Of a stretch of DNA of 64,000 nt, positions 1,419 through 44,200 are shown one piece after another. A model generated the notes under the pieces. That model was not told where the DNA came from and did not search any database. It saw nothing but the letters and a program-made list of their open reading frames with translations. Source of the DNA: Escherichia coli. Its GTDB lineage: Bacteria > Pseudomonadota > Gammaproteobacteria > Enterobacterales > Enterobacteriaceae. Within the stretch, counting starts at the first letter, position 1; each line of letters begins with the position of its first letter. Position numbers and translations under genes: made by a program. Location of the stretch: NCBI RefSeq assembly GCF_024298765.1, contig NZ_CP101211.1; one strand, 5' to 3'.

Positions 1419-2200
1419 GGCACTGTTGCAAATAGTCGGTGGTGATAAACTTATCATCCCCTTTTGCTGATGGAGCTGCACATGAACCCATTCAAAGGCC
1501 GGCATTTTCAGCGTGACATCATTCTGTGGGCCGTACGCTGGTACTGCAAATACGGCATCAGTTACCGTGAGCTGCAGGAGATGCTGGCTGAACGCGGAGT
1601 GAATGTCGATCACTCCACGATTTACCGCTGGGTTCAGCGTTATGCGCCTGAAATGGAAAAACGGCTGCGCTGGTACTGGCGTAACCCTTCCGATCTTTGC
1701 CCGTGGCACATGGATGAAACCTACGTGAAGGTCAATGGCCGCTGGGCGTATCTGTACCGGGCCGTCGACAGCCGGGGCCGCACTGTCGATTTTTATCTCT
1801 CCTCCCGTCGTAACAGCAAAGCTGCATACCGGTTTCTGGGTAAAATCCTCAACAACGTGAAGAAGTGGCAGATCCCGCGATTCATCAACACGGATAAAGC
1901 GCCCGCCTATGGTCGCGCGCTTGCTCTGCTCAAACGCGAAGGCCGGTGCCCGTCTGACGTTGAACACCGACAGATTAAGTACCGGAACAACGTGATTGAA
2001 TGCGATCATGGCAAACTGAAACGGATAATCGGCGCCACGCTGGGATTTAAATCCATGAAGACGGCTTACGCCACCATCAAAGGTATTGAGGTGATGCGTG
2101 CACTACGCAAAGGCCAGGCCTCAGCATTTTATTATGGTGATCCCCTGGGCGAAATGCGCCTGGTAAGCAGAGTTTTTGAAATGTAAGGCCTTTGAATAAG
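1419..2200 (+). mobile_element. IS26, lacking the last 38 bp including its right terminal repeat
   Basis: Left repeat GGCACTGTTGCAAA at 1419 and intact tnpA; sequence diverges from the other IS26 copies after TTTGAATAAG at 2200 instead of continuing ACAAAAGGCTGCC...TTTGCAACAGTGCC. Confidence 0.85.
1464..2186 (+). CDS. tnpA: IS26 transposase (supplied ORF has a 6-aa N-terminal extension)
   Basis: Translation [31 protein letters not shown]... matches IS26 Tnp26. Confidence 0.95.
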   Translation: MLMELHMNPFKGRHFQRDIILWAVRWYCKYGISYRELQEMLAERGVNVDHSTIYRWVQRYAPEMEKRLRWYWRNPSDLCPWHMDETYVKVNGRWAYLYRAVDSRGRTVDFYLSSRRNSKAAYRFLGKILNNVKKWQIPRFINTDKAPAYGRALALLKREGRCPSDVEHRQIKYRNNVIECDHGKLKRIIGATLGFKSMKTAYATIKGIEVMRALRKGQASAFYYGDPLGEMRLVSRVFEM

Positions 2201-5866: not shown

Positions 5867-6686
5867 GGCACTGTTGCAAAGTTAGCGATGAGGCAGCCTT
5901 TTGTCTTATTCAAAGGCCTTACATTTCAAAAACTCTGCTTACCAGGCGCATTTCGCCCAGGGGATCACCATAATAAAATGCTGAGGCCTGGCCTTTGCGT
6001 AGTGCACGCATCACCTCAATACCTTTGATGGTGGCGTAAGCCGTCTTCATGGATTTAAATCCCAGCGTGGCGCCGATTATCCGTTTCAGTTTGCCATGAT
6101 CGCATTCAATCACGTTGTTCCGGTACTTAATCTGTCGGTGTTCAACGTCAGACGGGCACCGGCCTTCGCGTTTGAGCAGAGCAAGCGCGCGACCATAGGC
6201 GGGCGCTTTATCCGTGTTGATGAATCGCGGGATCTGCCACTTCTTCACGTTGTTGAGGATTTTACCCAGAAACCGGTATGCAGCTTTGCTGTTACGACGG
6301 GAGGAGAGATAAAAATCGACAGTGCGGCCCCGGCTGTCGACGGCCCGGTACAGATACGCCCAGCGGCCATTGACCTTCACGTAGGTTTCATCCATGTGCC
6401 ACGGGCAAAGATCGGAAGGGTTACGCCAGTACCAGCGCAGCCGTTTTTCCATTTCAGGCGCATAACGCTGAACCCAGCGGTAAATCGTGGAGTGATCGAC
6501 ATTCACTCCGCGTTCAGCCAGCATCTCCTGCAGCTCACGGTAACTGATGCCGTATTTGCAGTACCAGCGTACGGCCCACAGAATGATGTCACGCTGAAAA
6601 TGCCGGCCTTTGAATGGGTTCATGTGCAGCTCCATCAGCAAAAGGGGATGATAAGTTTATCACCACCGACTATTTGCAACAGTGCC
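5867..6686 (-). mobile_element. IS26 (820 bp, complete)
   Basis: 14-bp terminal repeats at both ends, with tnpA on the minus strand. Confidence 0.95.
5919..6641 (-). CDS. tnpA: IS26 transposase
   Basis: Identical translation to the other IS26 tnpA copies. Confidence 0.95.
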   Translation of the reverse strand: MLMELHMNPFKGRHFQRDIILWAVRWYCKYGISYRELQEMLAERGVNVDHSTIYRWVQRYAPEMEKRLRWYWRNPSDLCPWHMDETYVKVNGRWAYLYRAVDSRGRTVDFYLSSRRNSKAAYRFLGKILNNVKKWQIPRFINTDKAPAYGRALALLKREGRCPSDVEHRQIKYRNNVIECDHGKLKRIIGATLGFKSMKTAYATIKGIEVMRALRKGQASAFYYGDPLGEMRLVSRVFEM

Positions 6687-6754
6687 CGCTTAAAAATAAT
6701 AAAAGCAGACTTGACCTGATAGTTTGGCTGTGAGCAATTATGTGCTTAGTGCAT

Positions 6755-6825
6755 CTAACTTTGTTTTAGGGCGACTGCCCTGCTGCGTAACATCGTTGCT
6801 GCTCCATAACATCAAACATCGACCC
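6755..6825 (-). other. attI1 recombination site of a class 1 integron, apparently with no cassette
   Basis: 5'-conserved segment ...GTCGCCCTAAAACAAAGTTAGAT followed on the cassette strand by what I recall as the start of the qacE cassette, cut by IS26 at 6686; boundaries approximate. Confidence 0.6.
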
Positions 6826-6894
6826 ACGGCGTAACGCGCTTGCTGCTTGGATGCCCGAGGCATAGACTGTACAAAAAAACAGTCATAACAAGCC

Positions 6895-7576
6895 ATGAAA
6901 ACCGCCACTGCGCCGTTACCACCGCTGCGTTCGGTCAAGGTTCTGGACCAGTTGCGTGAGCGCATACGCTACTTGCATTACAGTTTACGAACCGAACAGG
7001 CTTATGTCCACTGGGTTCGTGCCTTCATCCGTTTCCACGGTGTGCGTCACCCGGCAACCTTGGGCAGCAGCGAAGTCGAGGCATTTCTGTCCTGGCTGGC
7101 GAACGAGCGCAAGGTTTCGGTCTCCACGCATCGTCAGGCATTGGCGGCCTTGCTGTTCTTCTACGGCAAGGTGCTGTGCACGGATCTGCCCTGGCTTCAG
7201 GAGATCGGAAGACCTCGGCCGTCGCGGCGCTTGCCGGTGGTGCTGACCCCGGATGAAGTGGTTCGCATCCTCGGTTTTCTGGAAGGCGAGCATCGTTTGT
7301 TCGCCCAGCTTCTGTATGGAACGGGCATGCGGATCAGTGAGGGTTTGCAACTGCGGGTCAAGGATCTGGATTTCGATCACGGCACGATCATCGTGCGGGA
7401 GGGCAAGGGCTCCAAGGATCGGGCCTTGATGTTACCCGAGAGCTTGGCACCCAGCCTGCGCGAGCAGCTGTCGCGTGCACGGGCATGGTGGCTGAAGGAC
7501 CAGGCCGAGGGCCGCAGCGGCGTTGCGCTTCCCGACGCCCTTGAGCGGAAGTATCCGCGCGCCGGGCATTCCTGGC
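6895..7576 (+). pseudogene. intI1: Class 1 integrase gene truncated at its 3' end by IS26 (about 227 codons kept)
   Basis: Translation [44 protein letters not shown]... matches IntI1; reading frame runs into the IS26 repeat at 7577. Confidence 0.9.
6982..7010 (-). promoter_or_regulatory. Integron cassette promoter Pc, hybrid variant (-35 TGGACA, -10 TAAACT, 17-bp spacer)
   Basis: On the cassette strand: TGGACAtaagcctgttcggttcgTAAACT inside intI1. Confidence 0.7.
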
Positions 7577-8396
7577 GGCACTGTTGCAAATAGTCGGTGG
7601 TGATAAACTTATCATCCCCTTTTGCTGATGGAGCTGCACATGAACCCATTCAAAGGCCGGCATTTTCAGCGTGACATCATTCTGTGGGCCGTACGCTGGT
7701 ACTGCAAATACGGCATCAGTTACCGTGAGCTGCAGGAGATGCTGGCTGAACGCGGAGTGAATGTCGATCACTCCACGATTTACCGCTGGGTTCAGCGTTA
7801 TGCGCCTGAAATGGAAAAACGGCTGCGCTGGTACTGGCGTAACCCTTCCGATCTTTGCCCGTGGCACATGGATGAAACCTACGTGAAGGTCAATGGCCGC
7901 TGGGCGTATCTGTACCGGGCCGTCGACAGCCGGGGCCGCACTGTCGATTTTTATCTCTCCTCCCGTCGTAACAGCAAAGCTGCATACCGGTTTCTGGGTA
8001 AAATCCTCAACAACGTGAAGAAGTGGCAGATCCCGCGATTCATCAACACGGATAAAGCGCCCGCCTATGGTCGCGCGCTTGCTCTGCTCAAACGCGAAGG
8101 CCGGTGCCCGTCTGACGTTGAACACCGACAGATTAAGTACCGGAACAACGTGATTGAATGCGATCATGGCAAACTGAAACGGATAATCGGCGCCACGCTG
8201 GGATTTAAATCCATGAAGACGGCTTACGCCACCATCAAAGGTATTGAGGTGATGCGTGCACTACGCAAAGGCCAGGCCTCAGCATTTTATTATGGTGATC
8301 CCCTGGGCGAAATGCGCCTGGTAAGCAGAGTTTTTGAAATGTAAGGCCTTTGAATAAGACAAAAGGCTGCCTCATCGCTAACTTTGCAACAGTGCC
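7577..8396 (+). mobile_element. IS26 (820 bp, complete)
   Basis: 14-bp terminal repeats at 7577 and 8383-8396. Confidence 0.95.
7622..8344 (+). CDS. tnpA: IS26 transposase
   Basis: Identical translation to the other IS26 tnpA copies. Confidence 0.95.
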   Translation: MLMELHMNPFKGRHFQRDIILWAVRWYCKYGISYRELQEMLAERGVNVDHSTIYRWVQRYAPEMEKRLRWYWRNPSDLCPWHMDETYVKVNGRWAYLYRAVDSRGRTVDFYLSSRRNSKAAYRFLGKILNNVKKWQIPRFINTDKAPAYGRALALLKREGRCPSDVEHRQIKYRNNVIECDHGKLKRIIGATLGFKSMKTAYATIKGIEVMRALRKGQASAFYYGDPLGEMRLVSRVFEM

Positions 8397-15274: not shown

Positions 15275-16512
15275 CAGTGTTCACCTTCTGTATGGGTTGG
15301 GGCGGAGGCTGTGGCTGCCGCCGCCATTGTAGCAAATTGAAGACGGAGCGAGAGTAGAGCCACGAGCCCCGCAAACACGGCCGATACAACGAGGCCAGGG
15401 AGCGGACCAGCAAGGTCGACAAACGCGCCGGCCGCAAGCATAACCATGGGCGAGGCTGACAGCATCACCGCCGAGACCGTGCCGAGTACCCGGCCGAGAA
15501 GTTCTGGCGGCGTGCGGTTGTAGATGGCAGCGTTGAGAATGGGAGAGACTGAGCCGGTCAGCAGTCCCACGAGCGCGCCCAACAACATCAGCACCGGCAC
15601 GCCTGGCAACTGTGAAAGCAGAAGCGAGCCCACCGCAGAGCCACAAAATGCCACCGCCAGCCAGTTCTGCGCTGATATCCGGGCGCCGACCGACGCATGA
15701 ATGGCAATGCCAAGGAGACCACCAGCCCCCATCATTGAGGAGAACAGCCCGAGCTCTGCTACTTGGCGTCCTGCATCTACAAACAGCGCAGGCATGATGA
15801 CGCTGCCGTTGGCGCCAACGATGCCCACGAAGATCATCACTATACCAAAGAGAGGGCGCAGCAGGGGTTCGCTCCAGAGAAAAGCGACGCCGGCGCGCAT
15901 GGAGAGAGTCGCCGTCGTGGTCATCGTCCGAGCGGCACGCGCGGGAAGCACCCACGCGCCGAGCAGACCTGCAAGGACGGAGCAGAACGCCGTCAGCCCG
16001 AGCGTTGGCGCAGCGCCAAGCAGGCCGATTGCGGCCCCCCCAAGGGCCGGGCCACCTAGAATCGCGACGTTCCCGATCACCGCTTTCAGTGACGAGACGC
16101 GCTCAACGGAGAGCCCGGCGACGTGGCCGAGTTTGGGCAGCTCACTGTCCTGCGCGGCCATACCGGGTGCGTCGAACGCGGCACCGAGCACCACGCAAGC
16201 GATCAGCCCAGTGTTCGAGAGGGCGCCAACGGCATCGAGCAGTGGGATGCTCGCCATGGCCACGCCGCCCACCACACCCGAGATCAATGCGACGGGCGCG
16301 CGCCCGAACCGATCGACGAGGCCACCACCAACCCACGCGCCGATGATGGTCGCGATGACGCTGCTAGCGGCCGTGGCGCCCGCCCAGGCCGCGCTCTTTG
16401 TATGAGACAGGACGAACCATGGAAGCGCGAGGGCCGCCACCGCGTTGCCGATCCGGAAGAGAAAGGTCGCCGCGAACAGCGTCGCGAGCGGGCTATATCG
16501 ACGTTCGCTCAT
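15274..16512 (-). CDS. mrx: Mrx, MFS-type membrane protein of the mph(A) operon
   Basis: 412-aa hydrophobic ORF between mph(A) and mphR(A) with overlapping stop and start codons. Confidence 0.85.
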   Translation of the reverse strand: MSERRYSPLATLFAATFLFRIGNAVAALALPWFVLSHTKSAAWAGATAASSVIATIIGAWVGGGLVDRFGRAPVALISGVVGGVAMASIPLLDAVGALSNTGLIACVVLGAAFDAPGMAAQDSELPKLGHVAGLSVERVSSLKAVIGNVAILGGPALGGAAIGLLGAAPTLGLTAFCSVLAGLLGAWVLPARAARTMTTTATLSMRAGVAFLWSEPLLRPLFGIVMIFVGIVGANGSVIMPALFVDAGRQVAELGLFSSMMGAGGLLGIAIHASVGARISAQNWLAVAFCGSAVGSLLLSQLPGVPVLMLLGALVGLLTGSVSPILNAAIYNRTPPELLGRVLGTVSAVMLSASPMVMLAAGAFVDLAGPLPGLVVSAVFAGLVALLSLRLQFATMAAAATASAPTHTEGEH

Positions 16513-17414
16513 TCCGCTGCGGCGAGCTGCGCCTTCGCCGCAGCGAGGTACTCTTCGTTACCCGAGTCGAGGGCGAAGAGTGCGTAGGTGACCGCCCCGA
16601 ACGCAAGGCGCTCCGCGATGTGGTGGGCGAGCCGCGGCCACACCCGGCCACCGGCCGCTTCATACGTGAGGAGGAGCTTCGCGAGCCCCTCTTCACCAAA
16701 GACCATAAGGTGCGCGGCCATGTCGATGGCAGGGTCATCAACGCGGGCCTCGCTCCAGTCGATCATCCCGCTGACGCGCTCCGTGTTGTCGATGAGCACA
16801 TGGCCCACGTAGAGATCGCCATGCACCACCACGGAGAAATCTGGCCACGACGAATCGTCGTCGAGCCAGCGCTGCCACCGGTGGAGGCGCTTGTCGTTCA
16901 CCACGAACTCGCGTCGGACGCGGTCAACGTCGTCGGCCACCTTCTGACGGGCCTGCGTCGGTGTACGGATGAGCATCCCCGCATCCACGGCGGCGGAAAT
17001 GGGGACGGCATGCAGGGCGGCGAGCGCGGTCGCGAAGCTCTCCGCGAAGACCTCCGAGTCCTGCGGCACGACCCAGTCGGGCGTGGACGAACCAGGCTGG
17101 ATGACCATCGCAGTCGAGTCTTCGAGCATGGGATAGGCAACGAGCTCGGCGTTGGCCACGCGCCAGTCCGGCACCGCGAACGGCAGGCGATTCTTGAGCA
17201 TTGCCAGCACCCGCGCCTCTGGTTCGACCTTCGCGCTTACCTCGGCTCGGCGCGGGATGCGCAGCACCCACCGACGTCCATCGTCGACGGTGGCGATCAC
17301 GATCCTATAGTCGAGCCCAAGCTCATTGACAGTCAGCGGGCCATGGAGCTTGAGCCCATGTCGGGCTGCAAGTGCGTACAGTTGGGAGGTATCGGCGGTC
17401 GTGACTACGGTCAT
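16509..17414 (-). CDS. mph(A): Macrolide 2'-phosphotransferase Mph(A)
   Basis: 301-aa ORF MTVVTTADTSQLYALAARHGLKLHG...HGDLYVGHVLID..., an APH-like kinase fold. Confidence 0.9.
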   Translation of the reverse strand: MTVVTTADTSQLYALAARHGLKLHGPLTVNELGLDYRIVIATVDDGRRWVLRIPRRAEVSAKVEPEARVLAMLKNRLPFAVPDWRVANAELVAYPMLEDSTAMVIQPGSSTPDWVVPQDSEVFAESFATALAALHAVPISAAVDAGMLIRTPTQARQKVADDVDRVRREFVVNDKRLHRWQRWLDDDSSWPDFSVVVHGDLYVGHVLIDNTERVSGMIDWSEARVDDPAIDMAAHLMVFGEEGLAKLLLTYEAAGGRVWPRLAHHIAERLAFGAVTYALFALDSGNEEYLAAAKAQLAAAE

Positions 17415-17483: not shown

Positions 17484-18303
17484 GGCACTGTTGCAAAGTT
17501 AGCGATGAGGCAGCCTTTTGTCTTATTCAAAGGCCTTACATTTCAAAAACTCTGCTTACCAGGCGCATTTCGCCCAGGGGATCACCATAATAAAATGCTG
17601 AGGCCTGGCCTTTGCGTAGTGCACGCATCACCTCAATACCTTTGATGGTGGCGTAAGCCGTCTTCATGGATTTAAATCCCAGCGTGGCGCCGATTATCCG
17701 TTTCAGTTTGCCATGATCGCATTCAATCACGTTGTTCCGGTACTTAATCTGTCGGTGTTCAACGTCAGACGGGCACCGGCCTTCGCGTTTGAGCAGAGCA
17801 AGCGCGCGACCATAGGCGGGCGCTTTATCCGTGTTGATGAATCGCGGGATCTGCCACTTCTTCACGTTGTTGAGGATTTTACCCAGAAACCGGTATGCAG
17901 CTTTGCTGTTACGACGGGAGGAGAGATAAAAATCGACAGTGCGGCCCCGGCTGTCGACGGCCCGGTACAGATACGCCCAGCGGCCATTGACCTTCACGTA
18001 GGTTTCATCCATGTGCCACGGGCAAAGATCGGAAGGGTTACGCCAGTACCAGCGCAGCCGTTTTTCCATTTCAGGCGCATAACGCTGAACCCAGCGGTAA
18101 ATCGTGGAGTGATCGACATTCACTCCGCGTTCAGCCAGCATCTCCTGCAGCTCACGGTAACTGATGCCGTATTTGCAGTACCAGCGTACGGCCCACAGAA
18201 TGATGTCACGCTGAAAATGCCGGCCTTTGAATGGGTTCATGTGCAGCTCCATCAGCAAAAGGGGATGATAAGTTTATCACCACCGACTATTTGCAACAGT
18301 GCC
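17484..18303 (-). mobile_element. IS26 (820 bp, complete)
   Basis: 14-bp terminal repeats at both ends. Confidence 0.95.
17536..18258 (-). CDS. tnpA: IS26 transposase
   Basis: Identical translation to the other IS26 tnpA copies. Confidence 0.95.
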   Translation of the reverse strand: MLMELHMNPFKGRHFQRDIILWAVRWYCKYGISYRELQEMLAERGVNVDHSTIYRWVQRYAPEMEKRLRWYWRNPSDLCPWHMDETYVKVNGRWAYLYRAVDSRGRTVDFYLSSRRNSKAAYRFLGKILNNVKKWQIPRFINTDKAPAYGRALALLKREGRCPSDVEHRQIKYRNNVIECDHGKLKRIIGATLGFKSMKTAYATIKGIEVMRALRKGQASAFYYGDPLGEMRLVSRVFEM

Positions 18304-18916: not shown

Positions 18917-19369
18917 CTAGTCTTCAATGACGTGTAAACCACGGCGCTTTAAGTCCTCTAACGAATCCAACATTCCCCTTATTAATTCAACAGGATGCCC
19001 CTCCCAGTCTTCAACAACGCCAACAATTCTCAAGGGTTCGCAGGTTCTATAGGACTGTGTTGGATTACCGGGAAATTTTTTGTTCGTAAGATTCGGATCG
19101 TCTTCGAACGGTCCTGTTGGCTCAACTATGTATATGTAGCCGCGACCCTCGAGGCCAGACAGTGACATAGCAAGTTCAGCTCCCCAAACTGCTGGCTCCA
19201 TCAAGGCTGAAAAGTAGATGTGCTTAAGAATACGACCGTCCTCGAAATGAGAGATGAACCCTGTGGTTAGCAAGTCACCAATCGCCAAATTGGCTTTGGT
19301 TCCATGATAGAACGGTCCTTGCACCTGCTTGTAATTATCATGAGAGATGGGAATCCAATCTTTTACCAT
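18917..19369 (-). CDS. arr: Rifampin ADP-ribosyltransferase Arr (arr-2 or arr-3 group)
   Basis: 150 aa from MVKDWIPISHDNYKQVQGPFYHGTKANL...; the supplied ORF extends upstream into the attC. Confidence 0.8.
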   Translation of the reverse strand: MVKDWIPISHDNYKQVQGPFYHGTKANLAIGDLLTTGFISHFEDGRILKHIYFSALMEPAVWGAELAMSLSGLEGRGYIYIVEPTGPFEDDPNLTNKKFPGNPTQSYRTCEPLRIVGVVEDWEGHPVELIRGMLDSLEDLKRRGLHVIED

Positions 19370-19399
19370 TTTAAGACCCTTAATTGTTGGGATTTGGCT

Positions 19400-19479
19400 G
19401 CATAACGTCGCTATCAATCGCGGAAAAGGCGTAGTGCGCGAAGCGAACGAAGCTTTTTGCCGTCGATTGCATAGCTTTG
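19400..19479 (-). other. attC of the dfrA cassette (approximate)
   Basis: Imperfectly palindromic stretch between the dfrA stop and arr, ending in a GTTATGC core. Confidence 0.4.
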
Positions 19480-19962
19480 TTAACCCTTTTTCCAAATTTG
19501 ATAGCAATAGTTAATGTTTGAAGTAAAGTGTTGCTCAAAAACAACTTCGAAGGTATTTGGAATACTCGGGAAGAAAACATCCCCCTCTGGCTCGATGTCG
19601 ATCGTCGATAAGTGGAGCGTAGAGGCCATGGGTAATGTTTCTCGGTAAATTTCTCCGCCACCAGACACTATAACGTGACCGGTGAATTCAGCTAGCCTGT
19701 CCATGGCCTCTTCGATTGACTGAAATACAACTACATTGTCATCATTTGATGTCCAACCTGAGCGGGTAACGACCGCGTATTTCCTATTGGGGAGTGCGCC
19801 CATAGATTCAAACGTCTTGCGACCCACCAGAAGCCACTGATTGTAGGTCAATGCTTTAAAAAGTAGCTGCTCCCCTTTCGCGGACCAGGGTATGTCTGGA
19901 CCGCAACCAATCACGCCGTTTTTCGCTTTCGCAGCCATCAATGATACTTTCAAGGTTCTCAT
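19480..19962 (-). CDS. dfrA14: Trimethoprim-resistant dihydrofolate reductase DfrA (dfrA5/dfrA14 group)
   Basis: 160-aa [58 protein letters not shown]...; first cassette after attI1. The allele is a best guess from the dfrA-arr-cmlA order. Confidence 0.7.
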
Positions 19963-20040: not shown

Positions 20041-20108
20041 CGGCGTAACGCGCTTGCTGCTTGGATGCCCGAGGCATAGACTGTACAAAAAAACAGTCAT
20101 AACAAGCC

Positions 20109-20553
20109 ATGAAAACCGCCACTGCGCCGTTACCACCGCTGCGTTCGGTCAAGGTTCTGGACCAGTTGCGTGAGCGCATACGCTACTTGCATTACAGTTT
20201 ACGAACCGAACAGGCTTATGTCCACTGGGTTCGTGCCTTCATCCGTTTCCACGGTGTGCGTCACCCGGCAACCTTGGGCAGCAGCGAAGTCGAGGCATTT
20301 CTGTCCTGGCTGGCGAACGAGCGCAAGGTTTCGGTCTCCACGCATCGTCAGGCATTGGCGGCCTTGCTGTTCTTCTACGGCAAGGTGCTGTGCACGGATC
20401 TGCCCTGGCTTCAGGAGATCGGAAGACCTCGGCCGTCGCGGCGCTTGCCGGTGGTGCTGACCCCGGATGAAGTGGTTCGCATCCTCGGTTTTCTGGAAGG
20501 CGAGCATCGTTTGTTCGCCCAGCTTCTGTATGGAACGGGCATGCGGATCAGTG
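20109..20553 (+). pseudogene. intI1: intI1 truncated after about 148 codons by IS26
   Basis: Same N-terminus as the 6895 copy; reading frame enters the IS26 repeat at 20554. Confidence 0.9.
20196..20224 (-). promoter_or_regulatory. Pc cassette promoter, hybrid variant (TGGACA / TAAACT)
   Basis: Identical to 6982-7010; drives dfrA-arr. Confidence 0.7.
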
Positions 20554-21373
20554 GGCACTGTTGCAAAGTTAGCGATGAGGCAGCCTTTTGTCTTATTCAA
20601 AGGCCTTACATTTCAAAAACTCTGCTTACCAGGCGCATTTCGCCCAGGGGATCACCATAATAAAATGCTGAGGCCTGGCCTTTGCGTAGTGCACGCATCA
20701 CCTCAATACCTTTGATGGTGGCGTAAGCCGTCTTCATGGATTTAAATCCCAGCGTGGCGCCGATTATCCGTTTCAGTTTGCCATGATCGCATTCAATCAC
20801 GTTGTTCCGGTACTTAATCTGTCGGTGTTCAACGTCAGACGGGCACCGGCCTTCGCGTTTGAGCAGAGCAAGCGCGCGACCATAGGCGGGCGCTTTATCC
20901 GTGTTGATGAATCGCGGGATCTGCCACTTCTTCACGTTGTTGAGGATTTTACCCAGAAACCGGTATGCAGCTTTGCTGTTACGACGGGAGGAGAGATAAA
21001 AATCGACAGTGCGGCCCCGGCTGTCGACGGCCCGGTACAGATACGCCCAGCGGCCATTGACCTTCACGTAGGTTTCATCCATGTGCCACGGGCAAAGATC
21101 GGAAGGGTTACGCCAGTACCAGCGCAGCCGTTTTTCCATTTCAGGCGCATAACGCTGAACCCAGCGGTAAATCGTGGAGTGATCGACATTCACTCCGCGT
21201 TCAGCCAGCATCTCCTGCAGCTCACGGTAACTGATGCCGTATTTGCAGTACCAGCGTACGGCCCACAGAATGATGTCACGCTGAAAATGCCGGCCTTTGA
21301 ATGGGTTCATGTGCAGCTCCATCAGCAAAAGGGGATGATAAGTTTATCACCACCGACTATTTGCAACAGTGCC
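20554..21373 (-). mobile_element. IS26 (820 bp, complete); right edge of the resistance region
   Basis: 14-bp terminal repeats at both ends. Confidence 0.95.
20606..21328 (-). CDS. tnpA: IS26 transposase
   Basis: Identical translation to the other IS26 tnpA copies. Confidence 0.95.
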
Positions 21374-21767: not shown

Positions 21768-22124
21768 TTATTTATCTTTCACCGGGTTCATTTCCCAGTA
21801 TCTTTCACGTACGTTTTCTTGGCAATGGTCCGCTCGCTCCGGCGTGTCCCTTTTACGAGTAGCAAATGCTTCAATTACGGCATTCAAGTCTTTTTCTTTG
21901 ATTTTAGATCCAACAGGCAAGTTTTCTTCAAACTCAGTCCTTACCAGTTCTTTCGTTTTTTTATAATCGGTTTCACTTTGGATTTCAGGTTTTAAACAAA
22001 TATCGGCAACCATCACATCTGATTTGCCCGGGATCGGTTTTTTCCCGTTTTCAGATGCAAGGACCGCAGAGGAGGTAAAGGCGACAGACAGAGTTGCACA
22101 TAACAGAAGGTATTTTAATTTCAT
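21768..22124 (-). CDS. Hypothetical secreted protein (signal peptide)
   Basis: MKLKYLLLCATLSVAFTSSAVLA... signal-like N-terminus; 118 aa. Confidence 0.5.
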   Translation of the reverse strand: MKLKYLLLCATLSVAFTSSAVLASENGKKPIPGKSDVMVADICLKPEIQSETDYKKTKELVRTEFEENLPVGSKIKEKDLNAVIEAFATRKRDTPERADHCQENVRERYWEMNPVKDK

Positions 22125-22273: not shown

Positions 22274-22891
22274 TCAGGGGGAAATCAGATTGTTGTCGAC
22301 CCAGTACTTGTGCAAACCTACCACCCAATTCCTGGAAATGGACGAAAGTTCATGCGCCAGTTCACGACAGCATTCAGGCGTAAAAATACGTATGGGTCCT
22401 GAAGTACCGATATCAACAGACATGATAAACTCCAGAATGTTGCCATGGCATAGGTTGTTTCTCAGCCTGACAATTTCTGCTTCAGGTGTTCTCCCGGCTG
22501 CTACCTTAACCAACATATCCTGCTCGGCTGGAAATGAAAGTAATTCTACCGGCACCCCTTCCTGCTTGGCCTTTCTCAGTAAGGCATTACTCATTACGGA
22601 GATACCCTCCAAGTCCACCAGCTCAGGAGCTGCATGCTGATCGTTAACTGTTGGTTTCAGCATCAGCGACTTCAACGTAACCATGAGTGATGTTTCAATC
22701 CCGTTCAGGAAGCTCGTACAGGCCGGTATCCATAGTTCGTGATGCAACGCCTCGGTTGCTTGTTTAAAGAACCAGTCAATCACGGGGACAGTGTGATAAT
22801 CATAATAGTGATTTATCTCGCTGAATCTTGACATATAAGCATCGTACTCAGCCTGGTCTTCAGGAGATAAAAAATTTGGTGGGAGGGGCAT
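22274..22891 (-). CDS. Hypothetical protein
   Basis: 205-aa ORF divergent from umuD. Confidence 0.45.
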   Translation of the reverse strand: MPLPPNFLSPEDQAEYDAYMSRFSEINHYYDYHTVPVIDWFFKQATEALHHELWIPACTSFLNGIETSLMVTLKSLMLKPTVNDQHAAPELVDLEGISVMSNALLRKAKQEGVPVELLSFPAEQDMLVKVAAGRTPEAEIVRLRNNLCHGNILEFIMSVDIGTSGPIRIFTPECCRELAHELSSISRNWVVGLHKYWVDNNLISP

Positions 22892-23047
22892 CAGAATCCT
22901 TTCATCCTAGCTTGTATACCTTCTTCGTAGGCCAGCTCGCCATTATCGGTAAAAGATGGTTTTTGGTGTTTGTGACAAAGCTTAATTTTTCGTCAGGCTC
23001 GATAGCGTTACCGGAGAGATTTGATCTTTTCTCTGTAACTCGCAATA

Positions 23048-23063
23048 CTGTTTATACATACAG
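23048..23063 (+). promoter_or_regulatory. LexA (SOS) box upstream of umuD
   Basis: CTGTTTATACATACAG matches the CTGT-N8-ACAG consensus, about 20 bp before the umuD start. Confidence 0.75.
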
Positions 23064-23084
23064 TATGAGAATTCGAGTGTAGCT

Positions 23085-23519
23085 ATGTCTGTTATCCTTG
23101 AGCACATTAGCAACAAGCCTTACGAAATGGCACCTTTTTTCAGTGATTTACTGAGCTGTGGAGTGATGAGTCCGTGCGCCGGGCATGAAGATAATGAATT
23201 AAATTTGCATGAATATGTAGTCCGTAACCGCCCCTCAACCTTCTTTGTCAGGGCGGCGGGCCTCAGTATGATCAATGCCGGTATCAATGATGGCGCTATT
23301 CTGGTTGTGGATCGGTCTTTAACGGCACGACACGGCTCTATCGTCGTTGCGCTGGTGGATGGAGAGTTCACGGTAAAGATCTTACACACGTATCCTGAGC
23401 TGCTTTTGATGCCTTCTAATCCAGCCTATAAGCCGATACGTGTAAATCCCGAATCCCTTGAGATATGGGGCGTCGTCACCTTTGCACTGAATCAGTTTAG
23501 CCATGTACATGCACGTTGA
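23085..23519 (+). CDS. umuD: UmuD/MucA-like S24 peptidase (error-prone polymerase accessory subunit)
   Basis: LexA-like C-terminal domain; start/stop overlap with the downstream Y-family polymerase gene. Confidence 0.8.
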   Translation: MSVILEHISNKPYEMAPFFSDLLSCGVMSPCAGHEDNELNLHEYVVRNRPSTFFVRAAGLSMINAGINDGAILVVDRSLTARHGSIVVALVDGEFTVKILHTYPELLLMPSNPAYKPIRVNPESLEIWGVVTFALNQFSHVHAR

Positions 23520-24762
23520 TATTAACGGGGCCTATGCGGCATTTGAGTGTGCGATGGATCCCAAGCTGGCAAAAAAGCCGCTCATCATAGCCAGCAATAA
23601 CGATTCGTCCGTCATTGCAATGAATAAACTGGCTAAAAGCGTTGGTATTAAGCGTGGGACCCCAATTTTTAAGTGCAGGGATTTGATTCAGCAACACCAG
23701 ATCGAAGTCCGGAGCTCTAACTTTACTTTGTATGAAGACTACTCAAATCGCTTCCATGAAACGCTGGAAAGCTTCGCGCCTCAATCGAGTCGATATAGCA
23801 TAGATGAAAATTTCATGTTATTGAAAAACATGAACAAGATAATAGATTATGAAGATTACGGCCGGTTGATCAGAAGTACACTTCTTCATAATCTGTCCCT
23901 TACCTGTGGTGTGGGGTGTTCAAGCACCAAAACCCTGGCTAAATTATGCACCTATGCGAGCAAACGATGGGCAGCTACAGGCGGGGTTGTAGTTTTGACT
24001 GATCAGGCCAGGATCAGGAAGCTCCTGGGCCTTATCAGTACCAGAGAAATATGGGGTATTGGTCAAAAGATCAGTGAACGCCTGTCGGCTTTCGGGATCA
24101 TCACTGCCGGTGATTTTTATAATAGCGACGTTCGCTTTTTACGTAAAAGCTTTGGCGTTGAAATCGAGCGTACCTGGCGGGAACTGCATGGCGAACCATG
24201 TTTCCGGCTGCATGAATCCCCTCCTGTCCGGCAACAGATTATCGTTTCCAGAAGTTTTGGTCAGCGCCTTAATGAGATAGGCAAGCTACATGAGGCAGTT
24301 TCATTTTTTACCGCCCGGGCGGCAGAGCAGCTGCGCAAGGATGGCTCGTGGACCCGTCAAATCACAGTCTTCATTCAGAGCAGCAATTATGCGCAAGGTG
24401 AAAACCGCTACAGCAATTGTGGTATCGAGCCGCTTACCGCTACACAGGACACCCGCGATCTGGTTGATGCAGCCATGACCATCCTGAACCGCATTTACAA
24501 ACCCGGGATAGCGTATGCGAAAGCTGGGGTAATGCTCTCCGCTATGACTGACGGCACAGAGCAACTCAGCCTGTTTGATGAGCGCCCGGCCAGGCCTGGC
24601 AGTCAGGCACTGATGAAAGTTATGGACCGGTTCAATAAAGAAAAGCGCGGAGCTCTGTTTTTGCTGGGGGAAGGCATTCAACAGGATTTTCGTATGAAAC
24701 AGGCCATGCTATCACCGAGATATACGACCCGCTGGGATGAATTACTCGTTGTAAAAGCGTAG
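23503..24762 (+). CDS. umuC: UmuC/MucB-like Y-family DNA polymerase
   Basis: 419-aa ORF starting ...HVDINGAYAAFE... with a typical Y-family layout. Confidence 0.8.
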   Translation: MYMHVDINGAYAAFECAMDPKLAKKPLIIASNNDSSVIAMNKLAKSVGIKRGTPIFKCRDLIQQHQIEVRSSNFTLYEDYSNRFHETLESFAPQSSRYSIDENFMLLKNMNKIIDYEDYGRLIRSTLLHNLSLTCGVGCSSTKTLAKLCTYASKRWAATGGVVVLTDQARIRKLLGLISTREIWGIGQKISERLSAFGIITAGDFYNSDVRFLRKSFGVEIERTWRELHGEPCFRLHESPPVRQQIIVSRSFGQRLNEIGKLHEAVSFFTARAAEQLRKDGSWTRQITVFIQSSNYAQGENRYSNCGIEPLTATQDTRDLVDAAMTILNRIYKPGIAYAKAGVMLSAMTDGTEQLSLFDERPARPGSQALMKVMDRFNKEKRGALFLLGEGIQQDFRMKQAMLSPRYTTRWDELLVVKA

Positions 24763-24781
24763 CGGCCATGACCGGCATGGC
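24761..24781 (+). terminator. Hairpin between convergent umuC and the DsbA-like gene
   Basis: GCGGCCATG-accgg-CATGGCCG stem-loop; no clear T-tract. Confidence 0.35.
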
Positions 24782-24807
24782 CGTACTCATCAAAAGTGAA
24801 AGTAACT

Positions 24808-25617
24808 TTAGGCCCCGCGAGCTTTTTCGATTGCGCCCTGCAAAGTTGCTGCGTCCATAGCCCCGGGGATAAATGTGGTAGTCGCCGCATTCGGCTTTTT
24901 CATATTCATAATGATGAAGCCGGGTGTGCCGGTGATCCCAAGCGCTTCGCCCAGCTGCATGTTGCCGGAGATCACGTTTTCATATCGGTTTTTTTCCCTG
25001 TCAGAAAACGTGCTGTTAAACCCTGACTTATCCACCACAGTATTAAAGTCGCTGAGTTCGAATTTGCGTTGAGAGGTCATGAAGGTATGAGCCACAGCCA
25101 TCAGGTTGTTGTGGTATTTACGATAGGCTTCAGCACCGAAATTCTGATAGACGTGCAGACCCGTAGCGGCCCCCATGGCAGATACAGGTTTTGAACCGGC
25201 AAAAATCGGGAATTCTTTAAAGAAGAATTTTACATCTTTGCTCTGATTCATTACCGATTCAACAACAGGTGTAACCCGCATGCAGTAAATACACTGATAG
25301 TCGAAGAACTCGATTACCGCGACGTCGGCGTCATCCGGGCCGATGTTTGGCGTCTCCTTGGTATCCAGCAGAGCTGGCGCATATGGAATTATTCGTTCCA
25401 CTGAGGCACTTACGTTCTGATTTTCCAGCGCCTTACCTGCTTCCACTAAATAATGGGGATTTTTTACCAGGTAAGTAGCGGCAATTTTGCCAATTTCTTC
25501 CTCACTGAGCACCTTCGGTTTAAAATAAGTTGCCGCGATTAACGCCGAGGCAGCGGTAGCAATTACCGCAGAAATTAAAATCGTGGCCATCGGTTTTAAA
25601 TAAAATTCTTTAGACAT
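24808..25617 (-). CDS. DsbA-like thiol:disulfide oxidoreductase (thioredoxin fold, CIYC motif)
   Basis: N-terminal membrane or signal segment plus a CxxC active site (FFDYQCIYCM). Confidence 0.65.
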   Translation of the reverse strand: MSKEFYLKPMATILISAVIATAASALIAATYFKPKVLSEEEIGKIAATYLVKNPHYLVEAGKALENQNVSASVERIIPYAPALLDTKETPNIGPDDADVAVIEFFDYQCIYCMRVTPVVESVMNQSKDVKFFFKEFPIFAGSKPVSAMGAATGLHVYQNFGAEAYRKYHNNLMAVAHTFMTSQRKFELSDFNTVVDKSGFNSTFSDREKNRYENVISGNMQLGEALGITGTPGFIIMNMKKPNAATTTFIPGAMDAATLQGAIEKARGA

Positions 25618-25723: not shown

Positions 25724-26335
25724 ATGATTAGGCAGGGCTTTATACTCACAACCGCAATGCTTTTGAGTGGTTGTGGATATCATTTCGCAAACCAGGTAGA
25801 TGCGTACGATCTAATGCCTCGTCCTGTTACAAATAAAAGGTTTCAGATAGTCCCTCCGGACGAAAGTATTCAGTCCAGAATGTTTTCAGGCCGTTTTGCT
25901 GATGGATTAGCAAAAAAAGGAGTCATTATTTCCACTCACCAGCCAGATTATGTGCTCAGGTTCCGAATGAGCAGCTCACAGGAGAACATGCAGTATAGCG
26001 AGCAGCTTCTTACTGGGGTGACAGGCTACGTTGTAGATAAAAAGACAACGAGAACTGACAAGCATGGCGAATCGCATACTGACTATGACTACAGGCCGGT
26101 CGATGGGGTAATAGGCACTGAGACGATGTCGCAGATGCACTATATGCGACAGCTGGATGTCGAGGTATACCCGTCAGCGAAAGGAGCAAAGCAGGTTCTG
26201 AAAGTGAGTATGCAAAGCAATGCACCTGTGCCGTCAGACAGCATTGCTTATTCAGCAATGATCGACGCCTTTACTGATAAATTTGATGCGCCGCTGCGTT
26301 CCGGAAATTATGTTGCAGTGATCCCCTGGAACTGA
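25724..26335 (+). CDS. Hypothetical lipoprotein
   Basis: Lipobox LLSGC near the N-terminus. Confidence 0.55.
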   Translation: MIRQGFILTTAMLLSGCGYHFANQVDAYDLMPRPVTNKRFQIVPPDESIQSRMFSGRFADGLAKKGVIISTHQPDYVLRFRMSSSQENMQYSEQLLTGVTGYVVDKKTTRTDKHGESHTDYDYRPVDGVIGTETMSQMHYMRQLDVEVYPSAKGAKQVLKVSMQSNAPVPSDSIAYSAMIDAFTDKFDAPLRSGNYVAVIPWN

Positions 26336-29460: not shown

Positions 29461-30750
29461 TTAAGCTTGCTGCTCAGTTTGGTTCCGGTGCTGAAAAACC
29501 TGCCAACGGTGCTTTAGGAATTCAGTATTGATGGGTTTACGCAGCGGCTTAATAAACTCTCCTTGATATGCCGCTAAATCATGATCTACCGCCAAAGCTT
29601 CAGCGAGAATGTTAACCTCCAACGTCACCGGATGAATGGCAATCATGTTTGCGTCGAAAAGATCGTGTATATCATGGCGTAAGAGCAACCCATTTGTATA
29701 ATGGTCTACTCCTCCGTTACGATGCTCCATCAGATGAGCAGCCTCAGTGCGCTGGCGCAGTCTAGAGCCTGTAATCACACATTGGTCATAACAGTTGTTG
29801 CGGACGGCTTCTGCAAATGAGGCCTGATCTGGTCGTGTCTCGACAGTTGTCTTACTACCCTTACGCTTACCCGGTACAGTAGTTTCATCAGGAATATTCG
29901 GCTGAAGCTCCTTTTCTTCTATACCATCAGTCTTCATAGCGACCATAATCGCGGCCGGTGGAGATTTAGGCTGATCTTCCTGCGATCTTTCGCGGCCACC
30001 AACTGGATACCCTAGAAAACCCTCAATGATCTCTAGTGGAGGTAATGTAGCGTTTGAACGTGCATAAATAGCGAACTCTGCGGCACGTCCGCCGGGAATA
30101 TATCTACGTACCAGTATTGGAAGAGAGGCTTCTTCATCTGGTTCCTCTTTTTCCGACAGGATTATTCGTTCGGTGAGACGGGCTGAATTTTTTTTCATTT
30201 CACTCAACAGTCTATTGCGTTCTTTTACCTTTCGGTCATTATCCTCCAACATCTTACGATGACTAACCTTAGCCAGATGGTCTTCCAGTTCCTGTATATA
30301 TTCGGGATCGATAGTATCAATTAGACCGAACGCCATCAACCGCTCCCCCCTTGTTTTACAAGATTCTAGCCGAACGCGAATGTACTCCTTACGCTTGGCC
30401 ATCAAATGTTCTTTTTGTTTTTTTTCTCGAATTACACGGAGCTGAGTATTGTAATTAGAATAAACGGTTTCGCTATTCTGCTCTGTCTCTAGAGCAAATT
30501 TTTGTAGGTGTTCACGTAGTTTTTTACGGGTATTTTTGGGGGCATGCATTACGGTACGCTCAATGTATGAGCCTGTGCAGCGTAAAGAAAGTACAGTTTC
30601 AGCATGGGAATAACCAGCATTGAGACGATAGCGGGCAATTTTAAGCAAATTATTAAAGTGTGCACCATTACATATACCTAGTTCTTCCAAGACACGACGT
30701 TCTCTATCATTAATAGATGGATGGTTAATATCTTTTACTTTGTTTGCCAT
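29461..30750 (-). CDS. HNH-endonuclease-domain protein with a long charged N-terminal region
   Basis: C-terminal CYDQCVITG...AHLMEHRNGGVDHYTNGLLLRHDIHDLFD is an HNH-type motif; the N-terminal 300 aa are Lys/Glu/Arg-rich. Confidence 0.6.
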   Translation of the reverse strand: MANKVKDINHPSINDRERRVLEELGICNGAHFNNLLKIARYRLNAGYSHAETVLSLRCTGSYIERTVMHAPKNTRKKLREHLQKFALETEQNSETVYSNYNTQLRVIREKKQKEHLMAKRKEYIRVRLESCKTRGERLMAFGLIDTIDPEYIQELEDHLAKVSHRKMLEDNDRKVKERNRLLSEMKKNSARLTERIILSEKEEPDEEASLPILVRRYIPGGRAAEFAIYARSNATLPPLEIIEGFLGYPVGGRERSQEDQPKSPPAAIMVAMKTDGIEEKELQPNIPDETTVPGKRKGSKTTVETRPDQASFAEAVRNNCYDQCVITGSRLRQRTEAAHLMEHRNGGVDHYTNGLLLRHDIHDLFDANMIAIHPVTLEVNILAEALAVDHDLAAYQGEFIKPLRKPINTEFLKHRWQVFQHRNQTEQQA

Positions 30751-41233: not shown

Positions 41234-44200
41234 ATGATGATGAATTTCAGGGCGCTGTATTTATGTATTAAACGGATTTTGGGGATATTCTCATCTCAGG
41301 AGAATGATGCAACCTCTGTAATGATTGAGGATATATCAAGCCTCTCTCCTTTTGCGCAGATTCTAGGAGATCAGAAGTACACTGTTCCTGATCATCCAAA
41401 TCCAGAAGTCCTGAAATTCATCGAGTATCCAACTCGTCCGACGGGCATACAGACATTTAATGAACAGTCAATCCTGTCTCTGTATCGGGAAAAGCTGCAC
41501 TCAATTTCAATGATGTTAGCTATCAGCGATAGCGACATCAGGGACGATGCATATACATTTACTAATTTAGTATTAAAGCCCTTGGTTGAATATGTTCGCT
41601 GGATACATCTTTTGCCAGCTTCCGAAAATCATCATCATAATGGTATTGGTGGGTTACTTTCTCACAGCCTGGAAGTGGCCATACTCTCTTTAAAAAATGC
41701 GCATCACTCAGAACTGAGACCAATCGGATATCAAGATGAAGAAGTAGTCCGTAGAAAAGTATATCTCTATGCTGCGTTTATCTGTGGTTTAGTCCATGAT
41801 GCCGGAAAGGTTTACGATCTCGATATTGTAAGCCTGAATTTAGCTAGTCCGATCATTTGGACGCCAAGCTCACAAAGTCTTCTTGACTGGGCACGTGAAA
41901 ATGACGTGGTTGAATACGAAATCCACTGGCGAAAGCGTATTCATAATCAACATAATATCTGGTCCAGCGTTTTCCTTGAGCGAATCCTAAACCCGGTATG
42001 TCTTGCATTTTTGGATCGGGTAAATAAAGAACGTGTTTATTCAAAAATGATCACCGCCCTAAACGTTTATACTGATGGGAATGACTTTTTGTCTAAATGC
42101 GTGAGGACCGCTGATTTCTATTCTACTGGTACAGACCTTAATGTTTTACGTGACCCTATCATGGGTCTGCGTTCTAATGATGCAGCAGCAAGGGCCATTA
42201 GTACCATCAAGCACAACTTTACCAGTATCAATATCAACAATTACAATGCTAAGCCTATGCACATCATTATCGTAAATGGTGAGGTATACCTTAACGAGAA
42301 CGCATTCCTTGATTTTGTTCTCAATGATTTCGAATTACATAAATATAACTTCCCTCAGGGAGAGGCTGGTAAGATGGTATTGGTAGAATCCCTAGTTCAA
42401 CGTGGTTACGTCGAGCCCTATGATGATGAGCGTGTCGTTCACTACTTCATTCCGGGTATCTATTCGGAAAACGAAATATCAAACATCTTTAGAAATGGGA
42501 TAGGGAAACTAGAATTCTATAACCTTCTTAAGCTAAGGTGGATTGGTTTAATCTTTGATTCCTATAAAATCCCTGACTCAGTGCCGGGTCTTTTTAGCGT
42601 TAATGCCAATAAAGACTTTATTTACATTGACGAGCAAAAAACAGTTACTGAATACAGAAGACCAGTGCCCGGTCGGGACGCTATAACTAAAATTACTGAT
42701 ACTGTTGAGACGGCTGTTCTTAAGGTTAATGATTTAGGCCGCTCCACTGCCTCTATTGATGTTGATATACATTCTAAGAAAAATGAAGGCTCATCCGACG
42801 ATTTTGAGAAGAAAGCCGAAAGTGATAATGAAATTGATAATGACACGCAGATAGTTAAATCTGAGGGTGAGGAAGCAGCTGATCCTGTCATTCCTGATAT
42901 AGAAGAAAGTGAAGATGAATCGGCAAAGGACACGGAATCCCATGTCCTGGTCAACCAACTTCATGAACTCCTTTTAAGCGCTCCACTTTCCAATGACTAT
43001 ATAGTGTGTGTAGATGCTGTCCCCTACCTCAACATAGATGCCACTATGGCATTGCTGCCGGGATTAGATGAAAAAGCATTTAGTGAAGAGCCCTATTTCC
43101 AACTGACATTCAGAGAAGGCTCTCTCGATGGAATGTGGATAGTAAGGGACATTGACGATCTGCGTTTAGTCCAGCTCGGCGATAACTGCGCCGGGTTCCA
43201 GCTCACCTATCATGAGCCAAGAAGGCCAACAACTTTAAAGTCACTTTTCAATACTTCTATGTATCAGGCATTAGTGATTAATGATGAGTCTTCTGTTGAA
43301 AACTCTGCCCCACGTCCAAAGCAAACGCTTGAGCTGCCTCCCCCACGTGTAAATGCAGTCGAAGAACATTCTGGCGACGTGGAATATCATGGAACCGATA
43401 GTGCATCCGCGACTGGTCCGCTGAAAACTGAGGCTGTGGAATATGAACATTATCAACATCTTTTTGAGGAAGAAGATGAAGAGCATGAGATCATTGATTA
43501 TACCGATTTCACACAGCTTAGTGTTTCTCGGCCAGAAGTCGGTAGTTGTGCAACAAGCTCTTCGGTCCATAATGAAAAGCTTCTCCCCGAGCCGTCAGAA
43601 TTACCAGAACTTAACCGAGAACAGAACGCTGATCCCCAGGGTACGATTGAACGCTCTATGGATGTTTCTGTAGGACAAGAAAACTCAGAACCAGATACTG
43701 AGGGTAACTGCCCACCACCAGCTGAAGTTGTGTATTCCCAGACCGAAGCAGCCGCAACCAGTGTGATGGCAAGTGAAGAGCCCGCCTTACCTCCTGTACT
43801 TGAAGAATCAAATGGAGAGCATGCGCCCACAGACGCTAAGGGGCATCATCTTTCGCCAGCACTGGCCAGACTGTTCGCCCCAACAGCACCGGTAGAAAAA
43901 CAAAATCCCAAGCGCAACCGGAATAAATCATCGGACAAAGCAGAAGTACAAAAACCAGCATCACCTGTTTCTGGTCACAATCTGAACAGTAAAGTCTTTG
44001 CAACTACTGAATCAGACCAAAATGGTGAATTCTCGCTTATAAGCGAAGGTGACGTTACAGAGCTTGAATTTGTAGAAATTGCGTCAGTACTGCATCAAAT
44101 TCTGTCCAAAATGGAGGTGGCGTTTAAAAGAAAGCGCAAAAACAGATTTATGGTAAGTACTCCTAATACTCTCTATCTGACCCAATCTTGCGTGGAAAAA

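Follow-up and report, generated by a model that had tools for sequence, protein, structure and literature searches.

A predicted LexA-controlled umuDC-type operon for a DNA polymerase V ortholog on the backbone of IncHI2 multiresistance plasmids

A stretch of 64,000 nucleotides from the Escherichia coli contig NZ_CP101211.1 (assembly GCF_024298765.1), here called the window, raises the question whether a resistance plasmid brings an SOS-regulated error-prone DNA polymerase of its own into its host, and what this would mean for the mutation rate of that host. A sequence-only reading of the window had proposed such an operon at positions 23048-24762, with a consensus LexA box 20 bp upstream of a umuD-like gene which overlaps a umuC-like gene. 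This span proved to be accurate: it begins at the CTG of the box and ends with the stop codon of the umuC-like gene. The features of the locus are the following:

23021..23026, + strand: TTGATC, the -35-like hexamer of a putative promoter for the operon, within the 16-nt block ATTTGATCTTTTCTCT, which is invariant between IncHI2 and IncHI1
23044..23049, + strand: putative -10-like hexamer AATACT, read from the sequence 17 nt past the -35-like hexamer and sharing bases with the left arm of the LexA box
23046-23065, no strand assigned: LexA (SOS) box TACTGTTTATACATACAGTA, matching the palindromic consensus TACTG(TA)5CAGTA at 18 of 20 positions
23075..23079, + strand: putative weak Shine-Dalgarno-like sequence GAGTG, 5 nt ahead of the start of the umuD-like gene, within CGAGTGT, which is kept between IncHI2 and IncHI1
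23085..23519, + strand: umuD-like gene of 144 amino acids for a predicted S24 self-cleaving accessory subunit, assigned by Pfam, NCBIfam, and structure alignment
23503..24762, + strand: umuC-like gene of 419 amino acids for a predicted Y-family polymerase catalytic subunit, assigned by Pfam, NCBIfam, and alignments
24763..24783, no strand assigned: GC-rich hairpin CGGCCATG-ACCGG-CATGGCCG within the 45 nt that separate the umuC-like gene from the dsbA-family gene convergent to it

The product of the first gene contains the Pfam domain Peptidase_S24 (PF00717, E=2e-24) and scored 129.8 bits against the NCBIfam model of the UmuD subfamily, NF007621, for which the cut-off is 110. Its best match among solved structures was a chain of E. 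coli UmuD (8gmt_B, E=1.3e-31). Residues C25-G26, S61, and K98 align with C24-G25, S60, and K97 of UmuD, which are the cleavage site, the nucleophile, and the general base, so that the Ser/Lys dyad and the Cys/Ala-Gly cleavage site of UmuD proteins are both present. Serine 61 and lysine 98 are invariant among UmuD, MucA, the IncHI1 ortholog, and the IncHI2 protein, and in the same alignment the cleavage site is Cys-Gly except in MucA, where it is Ala-Gly. By analogy with these relatives the protein would be expected to cleave itself. An identical protein, WP_000111290.1, is annotated as umuD by PGAP. Membership in the HumD family was also considered and was rejected, as the score was 69.3 bits where the NCBIfam equivalog cut-off is 120.

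The S24 domain is common to LexA and phage repressors and weak matches to LexA were obtained, which could speak for a LexA-like or SetR-like transcription factor and for a gene pair which is a regulatory module and not a polymerase. Such a regulatory role is excluded by the domain architecture of the protein, which is 144 amino acids long, has no more than a short arm N-terminal to the S24 domain, and is devoid of a DNA-binding domain. The score of the protein moreover lies above the cut-off for UmuD and far below that for LexA (59.6 against 110.95 bits), and its partner is a complete polymerase, so that the probability left to a regulatory module is negligible.

This partner, the UmuC-like protein, comprises the Pfam domains IMS (PF00817), IMS_C (PF11799), and DUF4113 (PF13438). 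It scored 464.7 bits against the NCBIfam model of the UmuC subfamily, NF002955, which has a cut-off of 431, the match covering residues 1-418 of the 419 of the protein and positions 1-422 of the 422 of the profile. A DinB-type identity was rejected, since all DinB-type models remained far under their cut-offs. Aspartate 6, tyrosine 11, which is the steric gate, aspartate 101, and glutamate 102 are invariant in comparison to UmuC, MucB, and the IncHI1 ortholog, and thus the catalytic residues are all in place. The clamp-binding motif is found as QLSLF at residues 354-358, with glutamine 354, leucine 355, leucine 357, and phenylalanine 358 invariant, in agreement with the pattern QLxLF. As a sequence search of the PDB found no UmuC structure, the active site was checked on DinB-type structures and on the homolog alignments, and the catalytic motifs of the UmuC-like protein align to the active site of the DinB-type structures. 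Polymerase activity may be predicted from these comparisons. The identical protein WP_042634445.1 has been named UmuC by PGAP. The identities which had been proposed for the two genes are thus borne out by curated cut-offs as well as by an intact cleavage site, dyad, and set of catalytic carboxylates.

The two genes overlap, as had been noticed before, and they do so by 17 nt in different frames. Both reading frames are full length with respect to the curated profiles and contain no frameshift and no internal stop; a frameshift or a loss of catalytic residues, either of which would have spoken against the operon, was looked for on the alignment, and neither was found. The interval from the operator to the umuD-like gene contains no third gene resembling impC. 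The 17-nt overlap, together with the lack of a good ribosome-binding site ahead of the umuC-like gene, suggests translational coupling and a low ratio of polymerase to accessory subunit, as in E. coli. Behind the umuC-like gene, the RNA fold of positions 24750-24810 reached -18.8 kcal/mol (z = -2.67 against shuffles). The hairpin located there is possibly a shared terminator of the umuC-like and the dsbA-family genes; this assignment is tentative, because no run of T residues follows the hairpin on the + strand and the terminator scan of positions 22600-25100 did not call it. Neither Pfam nor PADLOC returned a match for the divergent genes of 205 and 118 amino acids or for the lipoprotein gene downstream, and for this reason no functional link between them and the operon was drawn.

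For comparison of the control region a true ortholog is available in the "mucAB" genes of IncHI1 plasmids of the R27 type, which were compared via p7PM1-IncHI1-mcr-1 (NZ_CP064026). Amino acid identity is 81% for the UmuD-like and 84% for the UmuC-like protein, at a nucleotide identity of about 75%. The IncHI1 locus shares with IncHI2 the 17-nt overlap, the -35 block, and a LexA box at equal spacing, and it has the same flanks, consisting of a divergent gene of about 205 amino acids, a convergent dsbA-family gene, and a lipoprotein gene.

The LexA box in front of the umuD-like gene had been described as a consensus box, which is slightly generous in view of its 18 of 20 matches, but the box is present and unique in the window. 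Its CTGT-N8-ACAG core is exact (23048-23063), and its two mismatches both lie within the AT spacer, leaving the conserved arms perfect. A search of the 64-kb window with the 20-mer consensus and up to three mismatches returned a single site, TACTGTTTATACATACAGTA with its two mismatches. The distance to the ATG of the umuD-like gene at 23085, given before as 20 bp, was measured as 19 nt. The core pattern alone occurs five times across the window where 0.67 occurrences are expected. Two of these five are identical operators upstream of two copies of intI1, and the sites at 26226 and 43871 were rejected as operators, having GC-rich spacers and being most likely due to chance.

A near-consensus CTGT-N8-ACAG in the promoter region is what is found for the LexA (SOS) regulon of Enterobacterales, and the operator is conserved at orthologous loci. 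The box of a second IncHI2 lineage is identical, and in the alignment with IncHI1 the arms ATACTG...CAGTAT are retained. The IncHI1 box differs in that its arms read CTGG...CCAG, with 16 of 20 consensus positions as against 18 of 20 in IncHI2, and in that its distance to the ATG is shorter by one base. When operators taken from database records were compared (for umuDC that of K-12), the IncHI2 box equaled that of E. coli umuDC with 18 of 20 matches, ahead of IncN mucAB with 17 of 20. The umuDC operator of E. coli is one of the tightest LexA sites, and because the IncHI2 box is just as close to the consensus, tight repression of the IncHI2 operon is predicted. On these grounds the operon is a candidate member of the LexA regulon, to whose operator LexA may be expected to bind by analogy with the known sites.

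The promoter had to be assigned by hand, since a scan of positions 22600-25100 for the sigma-70 consensus returned sites in background numbers only, none of them a promoter at the operator. The threshold of the scan was 9 of 12, and the pair TTGATC and AATACT scores 8 of 12, with a weak match of four out of six in each hexamer. In the IncHI1 ortholog the counterpart of the -10-like hexamer is GATACT at equal spacing, and the region upstream of ATTTGATCTTTTCTCT is unalignable between IncHI2 and IncHI1. The hexamer TTGATC occurs in the promoter region of E. coli umuDC as well, 17 nt before the umuDC LexA box. We infer that TTGATC-17-AATACT is the promoter, and that the operator, which overlaps the putative -10 element, extends over this element and the start site.

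In view of the weak hexamers, which the scan passed over, one could regard the LexA box as a sequence relic or as a palindrome that arose by chance, with expression being constitutive or governed by another regulator of the plasmid. A match as good as this one is expected 0.00 times in the window, however, its arms and its spacing to the -35-like hexamer have been conserved across saturated synonymous divergence, and its layout copies the proven operators of umuDC and mucAB. In addition, expression in R27 was independent of the plasmid master regulator (PMC7366339). A relic or chance box is accordingly considered very unlikely.

The extent of this divergence was seen in the comparison of the IncHI2 and IncHI1 orthologs, which yielded pS values of 0.69-0.77, which are saturated, a pN of about 0.10, and pN/pS ratios of 0.13-0.15. 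These ratios are raw values, as the synonymous differences in umuC are beyond saturation and a Jukes-Cantor dS could not be computed for this gene. Despite the saturation, the -35 block and the operator half-sites are unchanged and the spacing from the -35 hexamer to the box is identical. The substitution pattern indicates strong purifying selection on both proteins, and the retention of the proteins, the -35 hexamer, and the LexA half-sites at saturated synonymous divergence points to selection on the genes as well as on the operator.

Judged from these sequence comparisons, the operon is real, intact, and probably functional. It is considered highly probable that it is a umuDC-type operon of the IncHI2 backbone, an overlapping unit of two genes which encodes a LexA-controlled ortholog of DNA polymerase V for error-prone lesion bypass.

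The description of the carrier as a resistance plasmid is correct, as it is an IncHI2 multiresistance plasmid with a mosaic of mph(A), arr, and dfrA. From position 1 to about 21400 the window consists of this IS26-rich multiresistance mosaic, which contains mph(A), an arr rifampin ADP-ribosyltransferase gene, a dfrA gene, an ISKra4-family transposase gene, the 5' ends of two class 1 integrons, and IS26 transposase genes in five identical copies. The SOS-controlled integron promoters are located in the same region of the plasmid, and both integrase genes in the window are truncated. From about 21400 onward the sequence is IncHI2 backbone and continues into the transfer region, where TraG, the MobH relaxase, and TraD are encoded.

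Positions 22900-24900, which contain the box and both genes, are 100% identical to many IncHI2 plasmids, large conjugative ones with Salmonella, E. coli, Klebsiella, and Enterobacter as hosts. A 2-kb query matched 945 plasmid records at an identity of at least 95%; coverage of the query reached 80% or more in 899 and stayed below 80% in the other 46, and 934 of the 945 are conjugative. The records inspected were typed as IncHI2A/MOBH and carried the annotation umuD, umuC, and DsbA family protein. In NZ_MW509820 the umuC gene is cut by IS26, and in pCFSAN004025.1 an IS1 has taken the place of the upstream neighbours with promoter and operator left intact. The truncated umuC of NZ_MW509820, together with the 46 records of lower coverage, shows that the plasmid can do without the operon.

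A translated search (tblastn) with the polymerase over all plasmid records gave the following distribution, the figures being those among the matches listed:

identity of 99% or more: 501 records, IncHI2 in the records sampled
identity of 95-99%: 432 records, IncHI2 in the records sampled
identity of 90-95%: 1 record
identity of 80-90%: 212 records, IncHI1 in the records sampled
identity of 60-80%: 0 records among the matches listed
identity below 60%: at least thousands of records, including IncN mucB and copies on plasmids of IncL/M and IncI1 size

Records sampled from each of the identity bands contained an umuD/umuC annotation. The better matches form three tight bands, below which a gap follows. 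With no plasmid copy of 60-80% identity among the matches listed, the IncHI pair stands as a branch of its own within Pol V on the basis of sequence identity. The exact sequence is present, and annotated, in hundreds of public plasmid records, and in this respect the operon is already known and ordinary.

Among the characterised systems, the E. coli umuDC operon (DNA polymerase V) resembles the IncHI2 operon in gene order, in its box with 18 of 20 matches, in the distance of about 19 nt from this box to the start, and in the hexamer TTGATC. The proteins share the Cys-Gly site, the Ser/Lys dyad, the D/D/E triad, the steric-gate tyrosine, and the clamp motif, at identities of 41% for UmuD and 48% for UmuC. 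The differences are that the overlap of the two genes is 1 nt in E. coli as compared to 17 nt in IncHI2, and that umuDC is located on the chromosome and not on the backbone of a conjugative plasmid. The mucAB operon of IncN plasmids (pKM101 / R46 family; DNA polymerase RI) is likewise plasmid-borne, with overlapping genes and the same conserved residues, and its LexA box lies 15 nt before mucA. Orthology of the IncHI2 pair to mucAB proper was rejected, since identity to MucA and MucB is 48% and 46%, respectively, and the cleavage site is Cys-Gly in the IncHI2 protein and Ala-Gly in MucA. Due to this low identity and the Cys-Gly site, the name "mucAB" in R27 is to be read as a family resemblance and not as orthology. 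The impCAB (IncI1), samAB, and rumAB (R391) operons and the mucAB-like genes of IncL/M belong to the same family, from which the alignments took in UmuDC, MucAB, and the IncHI1 ortholog. Plasmid copies with 43-46% identity in the translated search amount to at least thousands and include IncL/M-sized (about 63 kb) and IncI1-sized (about 100 kb) plasmids. Identity of the IncHI pair to characterised orthologs does not exceed 48%.

In a literature search for the IncHI operon only mentions on the level of annotation were found, and no test of LexA binding, induction, cleavage, UV protection, or mutagenesis. Some of the mentions of "umuD" in papers on IncHI2 plasmids concern an unrelated delta-umuD fragment brought in from IncX3 and were set aside. 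A microarray study of R27 reported that mucA and mucB respond neither to HtdA nor to temperature (PMC7366339). This independence agrees with LexA or another host factor being in control, without being a proof of it.

The way in which a LexA-controlled polymerase V ortholog would work on IncHI2 plasmids can be outlined from E. coli UmuDC and pKM101 MucAB. In the undamaged cell a dimer of host LexA would occupy positions 23046-23065, covering the -10 element along with the probable start of transcription, and would keep the operon tightly off. Upon DNA damage, treatment with quinolones, or the arrival of conjugative single-stranded DNA, RecA filaments would form and induce LexA to cleave itself, and the operon would be transcribed. 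The UmuD-like protein would then cleave itself between cysteine 25 and glycine 26 by means of serine 61 and lysine 98, and the shortened form would bind as a dimer to the UmuC-like polymerase. Together with RecA-ATP and with the beta clamp, which would be contacted through QLSLF, this complex would copy across lesions at the cost of mutations. An effect on the mutation rate of the host may be expected by analogy with these two systems.

How strong such an effect might be is a question of its own, as the characterised orthologs of Pol V vary widely, samAB being weak and mucAB and rumAB strong. An intact and SOS-regulated operon might still be phenotypically weak, or even cryptic, in the hosts that usually carry it, like samAB of the Salmonella virulence-associated plasmid, and contribute little to mutation rate and to the evolution of resistance. 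Identities of only 41-48% to the active UmuDC and MucAB proteins are compatible with such a weak operon, as is the cleavage site, which is Cys-Gly as in UmuD, a protein slowly processed compared with MucA and its Ala-Gly site. The near-consensus operator, which predicts very tight repression, and the loss or truncation of the operon in some plasmids with no obvious consequence point in the same direction. On the other hand, the pN/pS of 0.13-0.15 and the retention of all catalytic and partner-binding motifs argue that the product is used, and a weak or cryptic operon is considered unlikely. Just as unlikely appears the opposite case, in which the IncHI pair would rank with MucAB or RumAB as a strong mutator and would measurably speed up the quinolone- or stress-induced evolution of resistance in the host. 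If anything, the Cys-Gly site and the near-consensus operator would favour a restraint of the mutator effect like that of UmuDC.

A further possibility concerns the beneficiary of the polymerase. The operon could mainly serve the plasmid by lesion bypass on plasmid DNA during or after conjugative entry, host mutagenesis then being a side effect. Single-stranded DNA induces SOS in the recipient upon entry, the operon is a conserved feature of the backbone located a few kb from the start of the transfer region (TraG, MobH relaxase, TraD), synteny is equal in IncHI1 and IncHI2, and 934 of 945 carriers are conjugative. Against this, the genes of R27 are not co-regulated with the conjugation genes (PMC7366339). 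A mainly plasmid-serving role is given a somewhat lower probability than a weak or cryptic operon; it is compatible with a LexA-controlled polymerase V ortholog and does not exclude it.

Most IncHI2 and IncHI1 plasmids sequenced so far carry the operon, and plasmids of these two groups are major carriers of resistance genes, among them mcr-1 (p7PM1-IncHI1-mcr-1 is an example) and blaNDM-5. If the operon is active, an SOS-inducible mutator which belongs to the backbone of these plasmids would bear on the pace at which chromosomal resistance arises in their hosts under treatment with quinolones or other SOS-inducing agents.

The predicted LexA operators in the window number three: the box of the umuD-like/umuC-like polymerase operon and two boxes that belong to integrase genes. 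The latter lie at the two class 1 integron 5' ends of the window, where the boxes, reading frames and attachment sites are arranged as follows.

6731-6805, attI1 / AAC_AAD_leader (Rfam match)
6867-6882, LexA box CTGTACAAAAAAACAG just 5' of the intI1 start
6895-7593, intI1 reading frame, 232 amino acids
19947-20019, attI1 / AAC_AAD_leader (Rfam match)
20081-20096, LexA box CTGTACAAAAAAACAG just 5' of the intI1 start
20109-20660, intI1 reading frame, 183 amino acids

The full intI1 gene of pSTM6-275 encodes 337 amino acids, as compared to 232 and 183 here, and the 3' end of both reading frames adjoins or overlaps an IS26 transposase gene. Both SOS-controlled integrases are therefore probably truncated. 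In two further matches to the pattern CTGT-N8-ACAG (26226-26241 and 43871-43886) the spacer is GC-rich, and the first match, if not both, is located within a reading frame. These two are unlikely to be LexA sites.

The IS26 transposase reading frame occurs in five exact copies in the window, which split the resistance region into segments. They are listed here together with resistance genes and a further mobile element carried as cargo.

1464-2186, plus strand, IS26 transposase
3626-5020, plus strand, ISKra4-family (ISKpn19-like) transposase
5919-6641, minus strand, IS26 transposase
7622-8344, plus strand, IS26 transposase
16509-17414, minus strand, Mph(A) macrolide phosphotransferase
17536-18258, minus strand, IS26 transposase
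18917-19507, minus strand, Arr rifampin ADP-ribosyltransferase, integron cassette
19480-19962, minus strand, DfrA trimethoprim-resistance gene, integron cassette
20606-21328, minus strand, IS26 transposase

The last of the IS26 copies marks the junction to the IncHI2 backbone, about 1.7 kb 5' of the umuD-like operon. A step in base composition is found between the resistance mosaic (positions 1-21400, 54% G+C) and the backbone (21400-64000, 45%), with a value of 48% for the polymerase operon.

Two genes on the opposite strand precede the umuD-like gene, and two backbone genes located beyond the operon are listed with them.

21768-22124, minus strand, 118-amino-acid gene
22274-22891, minus strand, 205-amino-acid gene
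24808-25617, minus strand, DsbA-family thioredoxin-fold gene, convergent with the umuC-like gene
29461-30750, minus strand, 429-amino-acid backbone protein, between the polymerase operon and traG

The 205-amino-acid gene shares a 193-bp intergenic region with the operon, and its start is about 155 bp away from the operon LexA box. Searches of Pfam and PADLOC gave no match for either upstream gene, and the N-terminus of the 118-amino-acid product resembles a signal peptide. Both genes are kept at the equivalent position in IncHI1, while pCFSAN004025.1 carries IS1 in their place.

The DsbA-family gene is separated from the umuC-like gene by 45 nt, and the convergent arrangement occurs in IncHI2 as well as IncHI1. 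In E. coli K-12 the chromosomal umuC likewise faces a convergent disulfide-bond gene, which there is dsbB (comparison locus L003, 3001-3531). This pairing in plasmids and in K-12 is curious and probably a coincidence. The 429-amino-acid protein is annotated with an HNH endonuclease motif, and its HNH match in PADLOC is weak (E=1.7e-05).

Among the records compared, PGAP chose two start codons for umuC, which correspond to window positions 23503 and 23509 (NZ_CP039271, comparison locus L005, position 1207). In the IncHI2 record NZ_MW509820 (comparison locus L006, 3007-3516) umuC is cut by IS26 after about 166 codons, and this natural variant provides a ready-made knockout to compare against.
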